This document shows, one piece after another, positions 19,998 to 46,257 of a stretch of 64,000 nt of DNA. Under the pieces are notes generated by a model. That model did not search any database. It was given only the letters and a program-made list of their open reading frames with translations, and was not told the DNA's origin. How positions within the stretch are numbered: the stretch's first letter is position 1; each line of letters opens with the position of its first letter. Made by a program: the position numbers and the translations under genes. The stretch lies in NCBI GenBank assembly GCA_951406725.2, contig OX597823.1:110174001-110238000 (forward strand). Direction: 5' to 3'. This DNA comes from Octopus vulgaris (lineage: Eukaryota).

Positions 19998-20041
<44 letters not shown>

Positions 20042-20207
20042 TACACAAACACACACACACACGAACACAAAAACACACACACATATATATGTATGCATAA
20101 ATGTGTGTGCTTATACACATAGGCATGTGGGTGCTATATATATAACTGTATATTTGTATTCTGTTGTGTATGGGGAAATGCAGTTTCTCTTTTAGTGCCT
20201 TATGATT

Positions 20208-20321
20208 TAACACACACACCGGTAAAATAGTCTTGACTATTGAAAAGGTTGCAAGACGCAACGAACATTTTAGAAAATAAAAATAAGAAATAAGTGGAAA
20301 TTTTACCGGTAAGTGTGTTAA
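20208..20321. mobile_element. Small MITE with Tc1-like terminal inverted repeats; partial second copy at ~41560-41650
   Basis: 'acacaccggtaaaat' ... 'attttaccggtaagtgt'; internal 'actattgaaaaggtt...agtggaaattttaccggt' shared with 41560-41650. Confidence 0.55.
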
Positions 20322-21255
20322 ATCATAAGGCAGTAAAAGAAAATTACTCTCCCTAGACACAACAGAATATACTTCAACACACGAACTCATATAAAGAATC
20401 TTGCAAACCAAATCCAAAAACGAAATATATATTTGTACTTATATTTATATGCATATCTAAATATATACACATGTACACTCACATACACAAATATACACAC
20501 GTACATGTGTGTTTGTGTGATATTTGTGACTGTCCTTGTATATGTATCTTTGTAGTGGTGGGGTAAGTATATGTGAAATTTATCAATATTTTTATGTTCT
20601 GTAGACTCGCTTTCTTTCAAATCTCATATTGACATAATTTTAAATTTTCAGTTGAGTTTAATACAGTTCATTTTAATTTATTTGACTTCTTTTATTATTT
20701 AGCTTTATAAGAATATGTTCATTGTACAAGAGAAAAAAAATAAAAATACGGCTTCAATTGCTTTTCAAAAATTTCTATGTTAACCGATCCAAAAGCTTTT
20801 GAAATATTTGCGAAAAAAAAGAAAAGAAAGGAAAAAAGAAAACAATAATACCAAAACAAAACAACATAATAACAAAGAAATACGTTAAACCAAAATGACA
20901 AAATTCTATACAATCTCAAAGAAGCTGATTAAACAAGGGGAAAGAAAACAAAAAAATGATTCATATAATGCAAGTAAATAATGACAAAAATATATAGAAT
21001 AAAAGATCATTATTATTTCTTTTTCAAACAAATATATATATAAAGAAATAGAAAGAAAAATATGAAATTTAATCTAAATTTTTTGGCAAAAAGAAGGAAA
21101 CAACAGAAAGAAAAAGTCGTTATCTGTTAATGTTTTATGAGTGAATTCTCTACTTCCGTATTTGTGTTTGTATATTGGTATTTTATGTTCTTTAGTTGTC
21201 TTCCTCTGTCCTTCATTGTCTTGTCATGTATTTCTTTTCTATTTCTCATAGACTT

Positions 21256-21540
<285 letters not shown>

Positions 21541-21884
21541 TCTGTGTGTGTTTGCGTTTTATTTACATAGTATGGTTGAAAATGATTGAAATAAAAACAT
21601 AAAACAACACAAAAATAAATCGAAAATATTTGATAACAAAAACATAATAAATAACATGAAGGAACGGAATCAATTATCAATGAAATCAAGAAATTTATCT
21701 CCGCACAAAACCTAGGCATATAAACATACAATTTTGCTCTCTCCCTCTCTCTCATGCTCTCCCTCTTTCTCTCTGTCTCTCTTTCTCTCTCTTTGTTTCT
21801 TTTTCTCTCTCTGTATATACATATATATATATATATATACAGAGATAGAGAGAGAGAGATCAAAACAGTTTGATTCAAATTCAT

Positions 21885-21925
21885 TGGTACTCTTGAGTTT
21901 CAAGCATGATGCTAGTCATCAGCCA
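21885..21925 (-). ncRNA. Minimal type-I hammerhead ribozyme motif
   Basis: Minus strand: tgg-CTGATGA-ct-agca-tca-tgct-t-GAAA-ctc-aa-gag-TA-cca. Confidence 0.6.
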
Positions 21926-21930
21926 TATAC

Positions 21931-21961
<31 letters not shown>

Positions 21962-22397
21962 TATATATATGTGTGTGTGAGAGTGTGTGTATATGTATAT
22001 ATATATATATATTATACTATATTATATATATATATATGTCTACTTACATACATACATGCATACATAAATGTATGTATGATATATTATTTGAGTGTTCATG
22101 AGTGTGCACACGTTCATAGTATGTAACCGCCTATTATGTTACTGTAACACTGTATAAATTTTCATAAACAATTTATTGTTATTCGATTCAGTTTCTTAAG
22201 ATGGTTACTTTTTCTTTTTTTATATTTGTGTGTTTAGCACAAATGTTGGCTTTTAATTTAAAATAAACATATTTTGCAACATGTTTTCTTTCTGTCTCTG
22301 TCTCTGTATCACTCGTCATATTTCTGATTATCTTTTACTCCTTCACCATATCTATATTTTCTCACCTTCTTTCTTTTTCTGTCTCTCTCTCTCACTC

Positions 22398-22443
<46 letters not shown>

Positions 22444-22567
22444 ATACACAAATATATATAAACAAATAGCACTTCTTTAACGACTATTTTTCTGACTGCA
22501 AAATTATTTAAAAGCATGCAGTATAATTTTATTCGTTTCTGCTGCATTAATTTTTGTATAATTTTTT

Positions 22568-22775
22568 CAGATTAAGTAAGGCAAGGACCGCTTTTCACCT
22601 GTTAAAATAAGTATGGAGCTCAAGTGTAATTTCAATAAAGAACAAAATAAGAATTTTCAACACTAATGTAAAAGCGGTGTTATTGTATGGGGCTGAGACA
22701 TGGCGAACAACAGTTAAGTCAAATAAGCAAATACAATCATTCATCAACAGATGCTTGCGTAGTATACTTGGGGGA
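22568..22775 (+). mobile_element. RTE-clade LINE fragment (region after the RT domain)
   Basis: Translates RLSKARTAFHLLK*VWSSSVISIKNKIRIFNTNVKAVLLYGAETW...FINRCLRSILG. Confidence 0.8.
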
Positions 22776-23066
22776 AATCACTCTCTTAACGCAGCCCAGT
22801 GCCAAAAGAAACACGTAAACAGCTCGCATAAGCGAATGTAACCCTAATTACTAGCAGGAAAACTTAAAGTTTAAAAGTTTGACTAAAGTAAACAAATCAA
22901 CACTTGACGACTAATGCAGAAACTTAGTTGTCAACATAGCTTTGGCAAGAGAGTCTACGAATTCCACCATTACATAAGAAACAACACAGAGACCAGGAAT
23001 ATACAATTCTTGAAAACGAGACCGTGAAGGTATAGAAAAGTCGAATCTGAATTTAGAAAATTTATT

Positions 23067-23132
23067 GATCTACTCTATCAGTACAACACTAGGGGGATTA
23101 CAACCGTGTTTCGTGATCTGCTACCACAACAG
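23067..23132 (-). ncRNA. Non-circularly permuted hammerhead-like motif, unit 2 (degenerate)
   Basis: Minus strand: ctgttg-TG-gtagca-gatcac-GAAA-cacgg-...-tgttgta-CTGATAGA-gtagatc, followed by AATAAA. Confidence 0.4.
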
Positions 23133-23157
23133 CTCCTTTATAGGATCCAGTTAGCTC

Positions 23158-23220
23158 AAGACATCGTCAGGAGTAACCACGTCCGGTTTCGGTCCCTACT
23201 CCTCTACCGTTTTGACTTGG
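23158..23220 (-). ncRNA. Non-circularly permuted hammerhead-like motif, unit 1, in the HERO-like 3'UTR
   Basis: Minus strand: ccaagtc-aaaa-cgg-TA-gag-gagta-gggacc-GAAA-ccg-gacgtgg-tta-ctc-CTGACGA-t-gtctt. Confidence 0.55.
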
Positions 23221-24454
23221 CGGTCCCCCACCCCTTTCGGAGGTGTCTTCAGCTCTGGTGTTGGGTGCATGTCTTCTTTCTTCTTCTTCTTTCTTCTGTT
23301 CTCTGGCCTCTTCGATGTATCGTCAGCAGGTCCCAGCCGGTGACTAACTGACCTGTCAAATTTTTCCCTCTAAATACCTGCCCACAGCCTCGAGCAGGCA
23401 GTCATAGCAAGTTGTCACGTGACACTATCTCACCTAAACTGACTAGTGAAGGCGCGCAGTTTTAGCCCGCGCATTTTCTAAACGACCGTCACCTGTCAGT
23501 CAGCGAAGCTGATTCAGTGTCAGCTTGTCTCACCTAGTGATGTTATGACTTTCTCACGGCATGTTATGACTTTCAAGCCATTTTCGGTCTTCCCGCTTTA
23601 GCCATATATAGAAGTTGGCTTTTTCGACCGCCTCCTGTACTCTCCTTATTAGTTTTCGCAGCTCCGAGCTAGAAAAATCAATTCTTCTTTTGAAAAGCAT
23701 TGTAATTTTCCTTTCAATGAAGCCTCTAGCCCCCACTGCCAGGTGATAATATTTGACATTCCATCCATGTTCTCTGTATTCTTCGATTAGCTTTTCGTAC
23801 CTCTTCTCCTTACGTTCCTCTGCATTGCCGATGTTCTCTTCCCAAGGTACTGTCATTTCTAGTAAAATTCCCATTCTCCGGTCTCTGTTCCATAGGACTA
23901 AATCTGGTCATTTTGTTGTTTTTATTAGTGAAAATATTACTTGTCTTTCCAAGTCCGTGGCCACTTCCCAGTATCTCTTCCATCTTTCATCTATCTCGTA
24001 TACTTTACTTGTAGGCCTGGTTTTATATCCTTTTCCCTCCTTGTGGAAGTATACTTTCTTGCGTTTTTCTACTTTTGGGTACTCTCCCCTATTGTACCTC
24101 TCGATCTTCTCCTTGAGTGCTGCGCCTATAACGCCGAGGACTTGATTATGCCGCCATGTATATCTTTCGAGTGCTTGTCTGCAACTTGACAGAACATGTC
24201 TAATCGTCGCTTTCTCTCCGCATCTACATTCATCGGTTGTTTTTATGTTCCACCGGACTAAGTTCGCCGGTGAGGGTAGAACGTCGAAGAAAATTTTAAA
24301 TACAGAAGACAAAACAACAAAAACCCAAGAAAACCTAAAGACAGTAGTATATTAAATGAAACCTATATACAGACGTTGGATATATTAATGGAAACATCAC
24401 TTTTTATTTAATTACGTGTTTCTGTTGGCAATATGATAAACTAAAAACTATTAT

Positions 24455-24494
<40 letters not shown>

Positions 24495-24495
<1 letters not shown>

Positions 24496-24896
24496 TCTTT
24501 ACTCTTTTACTCTTTTACTTGTTTCAGTCATTTGACTGCGGTCATGCTGGAGCACCGCCTTTAGTCGAGTAACTCGACCCCGGGACTTATTCTTTTTGTA
24601 AGCCCAGTACTTATTCTATCGGTCTCTTTTTGCCGAACCGCCAGGTGACGGGGTCGTAAACACACCAGCAATGCTAGGGGAACAAACACAGACACACAAA
24701 CACACACACACATACATATATATATACATATATACGACAGGCTTCTTTCAGTTTCTGTCTACCAAATCCACTCACAAGGCATTGGTCGATCCGGGGTTGT
24801 AGCAGAAGACACTTGCCCAAGTTGCCACGCAGTGGGACTGAACCCGGAACCATGCGGTTGGTTAGCAAGCAACTTACCACACAGCCACTCGAGCCC
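24495..24896 (-). mobile_element. tRNA-derived CORE-SINE with internal (TA/TG)n and (GTAAAAGA)n tail
   Basis: Head 'gagtggctgtgtggtaag..ggttccgggttcagtccc', CORE-like 'gtggcaacttgggcaagtgtcttct'; five copies in this window. Confidence 0.85.
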
Positions 24897-24974
24897 ATAT
24901 ACATTATGTTAGCCTGGAAATTCATTGTATAACCTTTTGGTTTTGCAGATATATATGTTTAAATAAATTAAAAT

Positions 24975-25200
24975 GCGTGCCCTGTATGAGTTGCAGAGAG
25001 GACGAGCTGTTGGAGTGCAAATGGTTGGAAATTCAGTCACTAAAACTAAAAGAAACTGAAAAGTACATTTTCTAAAATTGGATTAACACACACAAACACC
25101 GGATCTCAATATAATCGGAAAATATGTGATCCATTTTGCAGTGGAACAAGAGCTATAGTAGCATTAAGTGAAGAATAGCTCAAAATTCCACTAATAACTG
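24975..25200 (+). mobile_element. Tc1-like transposase N-terminal remnant
   Basis: Translates LYELQRGRAVGVQMVGNSVTKT, resembling the Tc1 paired-like HTH start. Confidence 0.4.
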
Positions 25201-25224
25201 GGTCAGATCTTGTATATATATATG

Positions 25225-25558
25225 TAATAAACGAGTGAAGAACAAATATATACTGCATGTGTTTATTTGGCATAAGAATCATCATCCCGAAGTACAGGAA
25301 TCTTGCAACACAAATTCATATAAATATGTATGAATATATATAAGTATATATATATATATATGTATATATATGTATATATATATTATATATAAGTGTATGT
25401 ATATATGTACACACACATATATCTATATATATATTTATATGAATTTGTGTTGCAAGATTTCTGATGTGAAGTCGTGTGTTGAAACATGTACTTCGGGATG
25501 ATGATTCTTTTGCCAAATAAACACACGCACTATATATTCGTTCTTCACTCATTTATTA
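25225..25558. repeat. ~100-bp inverted repeat around a (TA)-rich spacer
   Basis: 25225-25325 is the reverse complement of 25432-25558 apart from a ~24-nt indel. Confidence 0.85.
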
Positions 25559-25660
25559 CTGGTCTTATGCTAACTCATTGTCTGGACCTCTTCAGCGACA
25601 CTTTGCATCTTCGTGTGTGCTCTTGCTCTGCTTACTCTATCCTCTTCTTATATATATATA

Positions 25661-25690
25661 CTAGCAAATGCCCCTGTCCATTGGACGGTG
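25661..25690 (-). mobile_element. Helitron-like 3' terminus (5' extent not determined)
   Basis: Minus strand: hairpin ccgtcca-a-tggacagg then gcatttgCTAG|T. Confidence 0.5.
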
Positions 25691-27567
25691 TAAGTTCTTG
25701 ATAGGACTGGACTCTAAAACAGTGTAATTTCGAACCTGTCTATGCTTATGCTTCTGTCTGTGATGCCCTGGCGACTGCAGTAGAATCAGCATTGCTAGCA
25801 CGCTGGAGTTCTGCCCGTTGAACAGTCTGCGATACTCTGGTGATCGAATTAGAAGCAGGATTGCGAACACATAGTTCTTCTGTCTCGTTTGCCCGCAAGG
25901 AATGCAAAGTGGAAGCATTTTTGTTTTTCTCTCAATGTGACTCCTACTTTTTCGAGGCATCCTACCGAAATCTCTAATTGAATGAATCTTTAATAAAATC
26001 AATTAAATTTACCTCGTTGCTGTTTACGAGCACTAAGTATGGCATTTCAACAAAAAATTCCCAAAGCGCTAAAGTGCACAAGTATCTGCACCAAATGGCA
26101 AATTATTAGCACCAAATAGCACATTGATGCGGACAATTGTGAATGAGCATTCACATCTATAAGCAAATGTGGACAGAACGATTTCGAGAAAATCGATGTT
26201 CTATAGACCACAAGTGCAATTTTGATAAAATGTAAACGATCGATGCGAACACCAGTGCACTGACAGGTAGCAGAAGGTAAAGGATATTTCTGAAAAAATT
26301 CACACTTAAGTGCAAAATTCAAATAACAAGAATGTGCAAATCGAAATCTATTCTAGGACTTCTCTGAAAATGAAAGACAGCCAAAACAGGGCTTTCTTTG
26401 GGGGAAAAGGATGTTAGCATTAAATTGCGATATATCAATTTGGAAGTAATTAAATTCTTTATAAATAAGTTATTTAAGTCAATGTAACCGGAAAACTTCA
26501 AATGGAATATATGGTTCGGCAATATGTGATGTTGACCGATAAAGTAGAAAACCTTATGGATGAATAAGTTACCAGAACCGACCGAATAGGGCTTTTATTA
26601 GAATGTAGCTGACGAATTTGATCTGTAAATTTCGTAAAAAATTATAAGAATTTGCCAAAATATTGTTCAGTTATCCTTACTGATAGAAAATAACTCATAA
26701 TTTGAAATGTTGATACCAGTATTCCTTTTTCATGAAATGGAATTAAAGAGTATATAACGGGCATGTACGTGTTAAATCAAGTGAGTGATGCAAAAGTAAA
26801 AAAGAAAATACTGCTCATTTTTTGTTTTATATAAGAAATTGTTAGATAAAGTTTTAGATATTTGTCACTCAAATTTCAACGTTTAATCACCAATCACTTT
26901 GTCGTTTTCTACTTTCACTTGAATTTTGTTTTGAGCAAATATTCACACAGTTGATTGATCGCCAATTAGTGCCATTTATTCGTTAAAGTTAATATATTAT
27001 TTCATTTTTACTTATTCAGAATAATTGCCTAGTCTTCTAACTCTTTTGTGTCAGCTTATTTATTAAACAGAGAATGACATGCCTGGATGCACGTGTTCGA
27101 GTACATCGCATTCTAGAATGATATCGATTTTTAATGCAATCACATGTTCTTTCATGAAATTGCTTAGGAAGTTTGATGCAATTAATACTCTGATGCAGAT
27201 TGGACGAACATAGCGGTCGTTCGTTGATCAGTAAGTACTTTTAAAATCGGATTTTTCCATCAAGATCTTGATTTATAAAGGGCAAATCTCACCTTGAAAC
27301 TAGCGATTATGTTATGAAATGTACGTAATGCAACCACAGTGACGTCTTTTACCTATGTGTAAAATTTCAGTGCAATCAGTTGAAAAATACAACCGTTATA
27401 ATCTTTTACACACACAAAGAGAGAACAAACGTGGTTTATATATTATAGATATACTTACATACATGTACGTACATACATATATATGTATACACACACACAA
27501 ACATATATATACATATATATATATATATTTATATGTAATTCATATACATATGATAAAAGAGGTTGAT

Positions 27568-27625
27568 TTCGCATGATGTAATAACTCTATTCATAAAAGA
27601 ACTTGTTTGAAACAATTGTAGTGAA
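27568..27625 (+). ncRNA. Degenerate type-I hammerhead motif
   Basis: ttcgc-ATGATGT-...-GAAA-caattg-TA-gtgaa; stems I and III retained, core mutated. Confidence 0.3.
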
Positions 27626-27914
27626 CGAAACAATTTGTTGATAATTGCTTATTATTTACTTTACTCTGAACCTTCGAGTAGCGTGGAATAAGACTCTATT
27701 AAGTGCAGTGTTCCTAGGTACAGCCTCGTGGTATGTTCAGTCGAGTGCGTGTGATTGTATATGTGACAGTAATACTAATCCATCTGTACTTCGGTATGTA
27801 CGTATATTCTCCTCTGATTTTGTTTTGTACACTATTGCTATTTCTTTGACTCGAAATTGGTGCTTTAGTATTTAGGTTCCTGTTTAACTCGAATCCTGAA
27901 CTTGTACATACATA

Positions 27915-28800
27915 TATGAGGGGATACCCTAAAGAAACCTGAATTTTACAAAATTTCCTTATTTACTTAGTTTTTACATATTTACATTTTTAGGACATTC
28001 ATAGTATTCTCCATTTGAAGAAATGCATCGGTCGAGGCGAGTTTTCCACTTTTCGAAGCCGTGCTGGAGATTTTGCGAAGTAATCCATTGTAATGCCTCC
28101 GTCGTTTTCTTCTTCACCTCTTTGACATTTGCAAATTCCGTAGCACCAACTTTCTTCACCGGTCCGGATCAACTTATAACTGTTCTTTCAGTTTGCAATA
28201 CGCATTCGGTCGTTACTGCTTTTGATCTTCGTGAACAAGAGAGGCACAAATTGTGCGGCAACTTTTTCATTCGCAACTCCTCACTCCAAATTCGTTGGTA
28301 GAAGCTCCGGGATACACCAGTCATATCAACAAGTTTGTCAGTTATTCGGCGATGATCCTCCTAGATAGATCAGTTAATAATTTTATATGACGCTTTCATT
28401 AATTCGGGAGGTCGTCAGTCGTTCTGAACAAGGTTGGTCATCAAGCGACAAGTGACCATTCCGAAAGCGTGGAAACAATTTGTAAACTTATGTTTTGCTC
28501 ACGGCAGCGTCTTTGTAAGCTGTTTGAGGCATGAGAACTGGTTCGGCCGCCGTTTTCACCAGCAGAAAACAGAATTTCACGGAAGCATGTTTTTTTGTGT
28601 TTTTTTTCGTTTCAGTCATCGCAAAAATCGACTGAAGGCACTGCAAAACAAAAACGTACGACGTGGCATTACGAGCTCCTCTGGTACAACGCCTGTCGAC
28701 AAACTGATTTATAATGGTGGAATCTAGTTGCTTCTAGTGGCAGAAGCCTGAACTACAAATGGCTTGTCGTACAGAAAATATTTTCGGTTACTTTTGTATC
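27915..28800 (-). mobile_element. Internally deleted mariner-like element
   Basis: TIR-like 'tatgaggggataccctaaagaaacctgaat' and partial 'ttttcggttacttttg'; C-terminal EFANVKEVKKKTTEAL..FEKWKTRLDRCISSNGEYYE. Confidence 0.75.
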
Positions 28801-28920
28801 GGTTATTACATTACTGATCTTCTGAATAAGTGAAGCTATATTCTTTAATTTGCTGCTTTTCTTTACAGGAACTGAGAAGATACATCGCGTGACAGTTATT
28901 TTAGCGAGCTACATCTATTT

Positions 28921-29028
28921 ATCACCTGAAGAGACACATCTACACAGTCGGACGATCCTGAACCTGTTGTTCAGTATCTCACCTGTGAGAGATCGATGCT
29001 AGAAGGGTCGAAACAATTTTAAAAGATT
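28921..29028 (+). ncRNA. Hammerhead-like motif with long branched stem II (degenerate)
   Basis: CTGAAGA-gac...cgatc[ctgaac/gttcag][tctcac/gtgaga]gatcg...gtc-GAAA-caatt-TT. Confidence 0.4.
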
Positions 29029-29109
29029 AATGAAAGTTCTCATATCTTTCATCTTCCGTCTCTTATCAACTATATACATAATACATACATATACATACAT
29101 ACACACACA

Positions 29110-29140
<31 letters not shown>

Positions 29141-30117
29141 GAATGTATACAGATATATATGTATGTATATATAGAAATATATACATACATATATACACAC
29201 ACACACACATATATATATATACACATATATATATATTGGCGTGTGCGTGAGTGAATGTGTGTGTATGCATATATTTCTATGTATACGTGCACGCACACGC
29301 ACATAATTTATTACAATGTGTGAAATGTATCATTGGCAATTTTCTCGTTAGTTTACAAAAGAATATACACAGCTTCAATCGATGTTTTGAATGTGTACGT
29401 TTGAAACATGTTTATACTTAACCGTAATTAACATGATCCGCATCTGTGCTGAAAGAATACACGAAGAATTTATTATTTTAATAACGATAAGAAGCTGACG
29501 ATGATAGTTGTTTTGGTATGATGTCGGTGACGTAAGTGATGAGACAAGATAATTGCCTTGATATTGATGCTTCTGATGATAATGATGATGTTAGTGATAA
29601 TGATGGTGACGGTGCTGCTGCTGCTGATAACGATTATCACGACAATGATGATGATGATGATGATGATGAGAAGGAGGATGATGATGATGTTGATGATGAT
29701 GTAGATATTTATATGAAGCATAAATAACCTTCAAAATGAGAAAATTAGATAGCAGCGAGATATTGCTAATTATGTGTAAGGTAATGAGGAACATGATGAT
29801 GGTGGTTATGTTAAGGAGAAGAACGAGGAGCAGTGGTAGGATAACAGTAACAAACATCATGTTGAGGATGGTAATTGCAAAAACGATAAAACAAAACAAA
29901 AGCACAATAAAAGTACCACAAAAACACGAGCAAGAGGAAAAGAAATTAATCGAAATAATAAGAGTGAAACCCATTGCGTTGTTTAAGACATTCTTCCAGC
30001 TGTTTTAACGTGTTAGTATTTCTAAGCCAGAAGTGTCACTTAACAATACAGAATGATAGGCAAAATATTAAAAACTATAAGTAAAAAGAAGCCAATAAAT
30101 AAATAAATAAATATTGT

Positions 30118-40329: not shown

Positions 40330-40740
40330 AGCTATGGTAATATATGCGTTGGTCATTGTAGATTCTGTGTTGCTCACTCATGACCATCGGCCAACTTTCT
40401 TTTCCTAAATTCAGTTTCTTTCTTTCTTTTCTTCTGATCAGCTACAATAGATAAGACGCATCTTTGTCGGTCTCCTGTCAAATCTTGTTTCTCTAGCGTT
40501 CGCCACTTCACATCGTCATGGCTTAACATACCTTACTATTTTCACTGTCCTGTTTTTGTTATCAACTTTGACCCTCCGCAAATCTCAAATCCTATTTAAT
40601 TTGCTTTGCGGGGGCAACTGTTTTGACGAACGCCGCACATCTTGTCATAAATGCTCGAAATGTGGAGTAGATAAAACAGCCGACAACTGACGAAGGGTCG
40701 TTCTTTATGTTGCTTCTCTTGTTAGAAGCATAGAAGCATA
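40330..40740 (+). mobile_element. Penelope-like element 3' end / pseudo-LTR remnant
   Basis: '..ATSHRHGLN' (~40502-40528) resembles the terminal GLN motif of the PLE GIY-YIG domain; 40490-40715 is homologous to the reverse complement of 46020-46255. Confidence 0.5.
40636..40698 (+). ncRNA. Non-circularly permuted hammerhead ribozyme (predicted cleavage after C40641)
   Basis: caca-TC-ttgtc-ataaat-gctc-GAAA-tgtg-(17 nt)-gacaa-CTGACGA-a-gggt; all core nucleotides and three stems present. Confidence 0.75.
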
Positions 40741-45904: not shown

Positions 45905-46257
45905 GTGTGTACAGGACATAAAAAACGTAGACAAAATGAGAAACGAGAACATAAAGAACATAAACATATAAAAGGAACTTTTTTTCGAACCACGGATAAA
46001 ACAATCAGAGAAACGAGACTTGCAACATAGGAACATTCCCTTCATCAGTTGTCCCCATAAGTTGTCCGCGTTTCGAAGGTAGGGACAAGACGCGACATTG
46101 TTAAAACAGTCCTTCCCGCAAAGGGAAGTAGAAACATTTGGAATTTTCTGCCGTGAGGTGGAAGTGGTAACAAAAGCAGGCCAGTGAGAACAAAACAGTA
46201 AAAACAAACGGTGAGGGCTGTTAAGCCAAGACGATGTGAAGTGGAAAACGCTGGATA

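Follow-up and report, generated by a model that had tools for sequence, protein, structure and literature searches.

A hammerhead-type fold with a strand-exchanged stem II in the 3'UTR of an octopus RLE retrotransposon, and a possible circular RNA template

R2 retrotransposons carry a 5' HDV-like self-cleaving ribozyme which frees a linear RNA; the octopus element described here differs from them in the class of its putative ribozyme, in the 3'UTR position of this ribozyme and in having no copies that start at the cut. Zebulon, an element which groups with HERO, reportedly forms partial tandems, and the 2003 report by Bouneau and colleagues is said to announce its tandem structure in the title; partial tandems of such elements have probably been known since that work. 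In the literature searched, no ribozyme is described for the HERO clade or Zebulon. The search, with subscription papers, Repbase Reports and preprint supplements outside its reach, gave no paper linking a hammerhead with a HERO/RLE 3'UTR or with a four-way junction replacing stem II.

Hammerheads of type SGC (HRIMA-1 and a variant) were found in metatranscriptome contigs and, in the accessible text of that report, have a direct stem II and an extra helix which ties stems I and II (Eckert et al., 2023, PMC10085705). The same text considers six block orders, on the assumption that CUGAnGA is inseparable from its stem II arm, and patterns for these six orders would miss the fold described below because they assume that core and arm stay together (PMC10085705). 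The strand order of the octopus fold, treated as unknown by a first-pass annotation of the sequence, is in its plain form already published there as type SGC. As far as that account goes, both have the S-G-C order, pseudoknotted stems I and III, a short linker between stem I and the stem II arm and a full core, whereas in the octopus fold the C block is interrupted and a four-way junction stands in place of a direct stem II. Absent from the accessible part of PMC10085705 are the exchange of strands in stem II and a retrotransposon host; a term search of its text and supplement gives no retrotransposon, HERO or metazoan host.

Circular RNAs are known from animal retrozymes, where they arise by hammerhead cleavage and RtcB ligation (PMC7229834). 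From the available parts of the reports, these non-LTR retrozymes resemble the present element in hammerhead cleavage, circular RNA and a proposed target-primed copying to tandem DNA, cleavage and circle being putative in the octopus, but they are 170–400 nt long, non-coding and of type I, in contrast to an autonomous element of 3.7–3.9 kb with an ORF of 1175 aa (PMC7229834; 10.64898/2026.07.22.740005). Penelope-like elements with pseudo-LTR hammerheads are alike in the truncated copy placed before a full-length one, in the hammerhead within the repeated tail and in their microsatellite bias; in the accessible account they have GIY-YIG, a telomerase-related RT and conventional hammerheads, unlike the RLE and R2-related RT found here (10.1101/2021.04.23.441226).

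The DNA analysed (the window) is a 64,000-nt stretch of the 2.8 Gb, AT-rich genome of Octopus vulgaris. On its minus strand, the span common to aligned copies, 23094..24289, is a member of a high-copy RLE non-LTR retrotransposon family (family A) that lacks its 5' part. The full family A unit is ~3916 nt, and 2111 candidates were found in the genome, of which the 40 scored are 87–91% identical to the window copy; the flanks of the copies fetched are mutually unrelated, as in dispersed insertion. Our reading, to which we give a probability of roughly 0.6, is that the window holds a decayed copy of one hammerhead-type fold, and that intact elements likely self-cleave and use an RNA circle as template.

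An ORF remnant at 23554..24289 (minus strand) encodes, by translation and homologues, a C-terminus with a CCHC zinc knuckle and a PD..D/ExK restriction-like endonuclease, interrupted by a premature stop at 23910-23908; a Pfam zf-RVT match (E 0.01) lies below cut-off. Longer family A copies encode RVT_1 (Pfam, E 8e-22), and the best match of the protein among solved structures is to R2 proteins. The CCHC knuckle and PD..E endonuclease region is kept at the C-terminus in 19 of the 33 homologues found, these being the 19 that were aligned. The placement in the 3'UTR of an RLE non-LTR retrotransposon, proposed on first inspection, is borne out by RVT_1, the RLE-type C-terminus and the copy alignment, and no GIY-YIG endonuclease was found in the host protein, for which Pfam gives RVT_1 only. 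We take the names of RLE and of the ORF domain motifs to apply as used here. The element is of HERO clade type in its one ORF, which combines an N-terminal zinc finger, an RT, a CCHC knuckle and an RLE and lacks APE, a layout common to other RLE clades. The HERO label is our assumption, clade membership being set by description and not by named reference sequences. The HERO clade comprises RLE elements which, in the accessible text, are mostly non-specific or microsatellite-targeting, and the features of the host element agree with this (PMC4640811). A search of viral contigs found no relatives of the element. Immediately upstream (window 24460-24900) is another, distinct high-copy repeat, SINE-like, which recurs in many flanks of the fetched copies.

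The first-pass annotation had placed two successive hammerhead units within 23067..23220. For unit 1, the letters claimed are indeed present on the minus strand. The S block (stem III 5' strand, GUA site and stem I 5' strand) lies at 23199..23209, with a predicted cut after A23205, a position which agrees with the GUA site of the family fold. On alignment and pairing, the G block (helix b 3' strand, GAAA at 23190-23187, stem III 3' strand and extension 3' strand) spans 23177..23196. The C block (stem I 3' strand, CUGACGA core at 23170-23164 and helix a 3' strand) spans 23158..23176, with a mismatch at 23174 in the window copy. The upstream half of the fold (23249-23214) falls outside the interval of that annotation. 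Stem I had been described as 3 bp; the pairing is present, as the decayed form of a 6-bp family helix which is intact in 22 of 30 family A copies. Unit 1 is common to the whole family, and most copies preserve it in better shape than the window copy does (n = 30: core intact in 29, cut site in 28, GAAA in 27). In the window copy, stem I, helix b and the extension all contain mismatches; this copy fails both the strict descriptor and the four-way fit, and is probably a weak or dead fossil of the fold. The part of family A that varies most, in length and in its C-tract, is the G-run between hairpin h and helix b (window 23222-23235). In an Rfam scan of window positions 20000-30000, no hammerhead was matched with an E value of 10 or below. 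A conventional type I or III hammerhead using a second GAAA block was considered and rejected, with no stem II of at least 2 bp found in the core register across 22901-23600.

A protein search identified a younger family in the same genome (family B; unit 3738 nt, ORF 1175 aa, tails 98–100% identical), whose block order is that of family A with compensatory changes. Metagenome relatives were collected at 79 loci (the best 80 of 110), 73 of them anchored at the ORF end. The non-circularly permuted order of site, GAAA and CUGANGA claimed for unit 1 holds up in these, a strict descriptor matching 23 of the 73 3'UTRs, none of 1460 shuffles and none of the 73 reverse complements; a relaxed descriptor matched 29 of 56 loci selected for a match near the C-terminus, and 0/560 shuffles. 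In a quick tree of 76 rows, all motifs of the rewired type fall in one 64-row clade (SH-aLRT 100) together with families A and B. Fifteen of 81 rows have at least 800 nt of flank yet no scripted match, some being degenerate, some belonging to a long-UTR lineage and some lying outside the clade. In one lineage the ribozyme is situated far downstream in a long 3'UTR (L044 +717, L087 +1634, L095 +668). Two distant RLE elements outside the main clade (L069:1040-1140 and L070:1415-1510) have plain type-SGC motifs with a direct stem II of 6 and 3 bp, respectively. Both diverge a few bases past the core, where the element may end. These could possibly represent the ancestral state, their long-branch placement being unsure.

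The direct stem II that had been claimed is absent. On an alignment of nine relatives it is 36% paired, with 0/6 pairs compensatory and the 10.1-11.1 pair in 0/9, and there is no covariation; among the 23 strict descriptor matches it amounts to 0 bp in 21 and 2 bp in two, and in 18 non-redundant motifs 39 of 90 cells are paired (shuffle mean 37), with the 10.1-11.1 pair in 2/18. Each arm pairs instead with its own strand upstream, the arm 3' of the core forming helix a and the arm 5' of GAAA helix b; hairpin h sits between these two upstream strands, usually with no unpaired base at the junction. In the window, all on the minus strand, the 5' strand of helix a, the partner of the arm following CUGANGA, is at 23244..23249 (97% paired, 3/4 pairs compensatory). 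Hairpin h, the fourth arm of the junction, is at 23228..23243 (89% paired). The 5' strand of helix b, whose first G pairs with C11.1 and replaces G10.1, is at 23222..23227 and has two G.A mismatches in the window copy. The 5' strand of the extension helix, which connects the strands of helix b and stem I and covaries (6/7 pairs compensatory), is at 23214..23220, with one mismatch in the window copy.

This six-helix model (a, b, h, I, III and extension) was scored on a plain MAFFT alignment of nine hand-picked relatives that had not been fitted to structure. Pairing was found in 94% of 285 cells, with 20 of 32 pairs changed on both sides; 0/500 shuffles reach its score and slid registers are 44–51% paired. 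A check for covariation in stems I to III thus comes out positive for stems I and III and negative for the direct stem II. In the 18 non-redundant motifs, stem I is paired in 88/90 cells and stem III in 86/90, and the NUH site is present in 18/18. The pairing of a, b and h in this set is partly by construction, since their registers were found by search, and this applies to the first pair of helix b there (17 G-C, one G-U); on the unfitted alignment that G faces C11.1 in 9/9. The four-way fit exceeds all 60 shuffles in 22 of 25 loci, three being weak. Nested folding gives z-scores of -1.4, -1.2 and 0.3, none of them significant and all uninformative for a pseudoknotted fold; in its prediction a rival helix joins the G-run to the stem I 3' strand. 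By eye, signs of a kink-turn between extension and stem III (a 3-nt bulge, then tandem G.A) are absent in the window family and plausible in L102 and L106.

Hammerheads conserve a G-C pair at 10.1-11.1. From the alignments we infer that helix b corresponds to stem II, its 5' strand coming from another part of the RNA, and that the backbone crosses over after A9; helix b would stack on the core as stem II, and helix a on hairpin h. That a single conserved fold of hammerhead type exists here is almost certain on this comparative evidence, and it very probably cleaves when intact. Its position matches where R2-type proteins bind their RNA, according to the accessible part of PMC12222951, and its stem II is non-canonical, as might be expected if it no longer cleaved and served as a protein-binding 3'UTR pseudoknot as in R2. 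Such a role would leave the retention of CUGANGA, GAAA, NUH and the 10.1-11.1 G-C, all kept while the helices covary, without a reason, and we consider it very unlikely.

The 3' end of the element was located by comparison of copies. All 29 other family A copies end at 23094-23097 or a few bases further and then diverge. The remaining 3'UTR (23094..23157, minus strand) is family A sequence and includes the S and GAAA blocks claimed for unit 2, the GAAA block being specific to family A and absent from family B and the other relatives inspected. The rest of unit 2 lies in flanking genomic DNA (23061..23093, minus strand): the CUGAUAGA core at 23081-23074, its stem partner at 23073-23067 and AATAAA at 23066-23061. 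Core, partner strand and AATAAA occur in one of the 30 flanks, the window's own, and in 0/29 other copies. The claimed unit-2 site has G at position 17 (23125), in violation of the NUH rule, and shuffled versions of the stretch fold equally well (z 0.27). Unit 2 is, given this restriction to the window flank and the G17, a chance assembly across the insertion boundary, and the locus has one hammerhead-type unit, not two in tandem.

The functions that the first-pass annotation had proposed for the pair fare accordingly. Removal of the poly(A) loses its basis with an AATAAA that belongs to the flank and not to the element, and excision of a 75–80-nt spacer would require a unit 2 that is absent, its core lying beyond the 3' end of the element. 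Among protein-selected copies of families A and B, 25 of 26 run on to the normal 3' end, 111–116 nt past the cut site, and the remaining copy stops 139 nt before the normal end, away from the cut site; none stops at the site, where a cut defining the 3' template end would have made them stop. We give almost no credence to that reading as a whole, correct as it was on unit 1 and on the position of the cut.

The insertions of both families were then compared at their upstream side. For family B, 30 loci were chosen by the first 156 nt of the unit, 28 of which reach the unit start, and 27 of these 28 have at least 21 nt of the element's own tail joined seamlessly upstream. The upstream tail extends past the cut site in 20/28. 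In family A, upstream tails are present at 26 of 30 loci (24 past the cut site, four loci without a tail), corresponding to 20 independent events since seven share one junction. The overshoots range from 17 to 1971 nt with scattered ends in both families, the longest reaching the ORF. No tail starts at the cut site (0/28 family B and 0/30 family A loci). The partial tandem places a ribozyme just upstream of the ORF, where its sole role could in principle be to define where a linear transcript begins, as the HDV-like ribozyme does in R2; with no start at the cut and most tails extending past it, this is largely refuted and highly improbable. Four of the 20 family A upstream partials (L219, L221, L234 and L242) end at 153–159 nt, the 5' edge of the ribozyme fold, which suggests a pause on a second pass.

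Beyond the 3' end, flanks match the opening bases of the unit for longer than chance predicts, with a mean of 1.37 in family B (0.15 by chance, 0/5000, n = 30) and of 1.43 against 0.38 in family A (n = 28); 8 of the 30 family B flanks begin in a TA repeat. Tails, ends and flank continuation together indicate a template in which the start of the element followed immediately on its end and the ribozyme was traversed two times. At the 10 loci having both upstream and downstream tails, the same-locus tail is the closest alone in three, tied in four and lower in three, and among short copies it is closest in 2/5 and not in 3/5. A self-targeted insertion into the end of an older copy was also considered and is disfavoured, same-locus tails sharing subfamily variants at the older loci that are informative (L196, L202, L205) and the flanks of truncated copies being unrelated. 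Four assembled contig sets of presumed RNA type span the unit, such contigs carrying no end information.

On these data the template was probably a covalent circle. R2-type enzymes are capable of template jumping, and a ribozyme that cuts without ligation would leave a monomer whose cut ends stay together through four shared helices; on such a nicked ring, a reverse transcriptase jumping the nick would yield the same partial tandems. Template jumps usually leave scars, yet the cut site is copied cleanly, being kept in 28/30 family A copies, with young family B tails 98–100% identical through it; a nicked ring is unlikely. A further source of partial tandems, with the same-locus similarity, would be multimers, if uncut read-through transcripts of tandem loci were the templates and the ribozyme were mostly off or limited the level of element RNA. 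The inactive rival fold predicted above fits this, as do Naiad elements, for which the accessible report describes partial tandems without detectable hammerheads (10.1101/2021.04.23.441226), and in view of which partial tandems alone are no proof of circles. With linear templates, 5' sequence should be lost at every generation; overshoots of this length are nevertheless found in both families, and the core is kept across a deep clade, which makes uncut templates quite unlikely. The partial tandems fit a circular RNA template better than trimming of the 3' end.

We infer cleavage, ligation, a circle and internal priming as the most economical explanation, with steps already demonstrated or suggested for retrozymes (PMC7229834), in a cycle which might run as follows. 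A partial-tandem locus would be transcribed through two ribozymes, both of which would cut to give a monomer whose ends are held paired by helices a, b and III and the extension. This monomer could close into a circle by itself or through a host ligase of RtcB type. The element protein would prime at the fixed 3'-end site, 111–116 nt past the cut, assisted by a short stretch of pairing between the target and the bases that follow this site, and reverse transcription would round the ring and overshoot, regenerating a partial tandem.

Internally deleted copies of family B (L197, L199, L200, L203, L204, L206 and L209–L211) are ~0.6–1.4 kb long with differing breakpoints. They retain head and ribozyme tail in partial tandem, like non-autonomous mini-circles. 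Locus L153 is a head-to-head inverted pair of family B copies with a common 5' junction, which resembles the inverted arrangements of Penelope-like elements. The 5' end of the element has repeated short hairpin-like motifs with a GGAAAGAC core, common to distant families (L155:2585-2720; unit start of L033), and the same 5' head lies downstream of the tail in several metagenome loci (L050, L053, L054, L056 and L063).

In its widest form, for and against which we see even odds, the proposal is of an RLE LINE clade that may replicate through a covalent circular RNA. It would have a seventh hammerhead wiring, with a Holliday-like junction after A9 holding the cut ends for ligation; the partial tandems would be the footprint of rolling reverse transcription, and the internally deleted copies satellite mini-circles. 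If true, this would be a hammerhead architecture excluded by assumption in published descriptors, and genome-wide ribozyme counts would be too low because those descriptors exclude it. It would further offer a testable cause for the partial tandems of RLE and Penelope-type insertions, and no other protein-coding LINE of this group would before it have had a circular template produced by a ribozyme. With R2-type proteins in development for gene insertion, a relative priming inside a stable circular RNA would be of practical interest. Near-identical intact copies are present in the same genome.

A second high-copy repeat, short, non-coding and unrelated in sequence, occurs in the window at 46035-46140 (minus strand, cut site 46089) and at ~40590-40710 (plus strand, cut site 40641). 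No link to an ORF was found within 1.5 kb of 25 of its loci. There are 2582 candidates for this repeat, of which 40 were scored, and one further case lies in the flank of L200. It has the same block order and helix b, with a short single-stranded linker replacing hairpin h.
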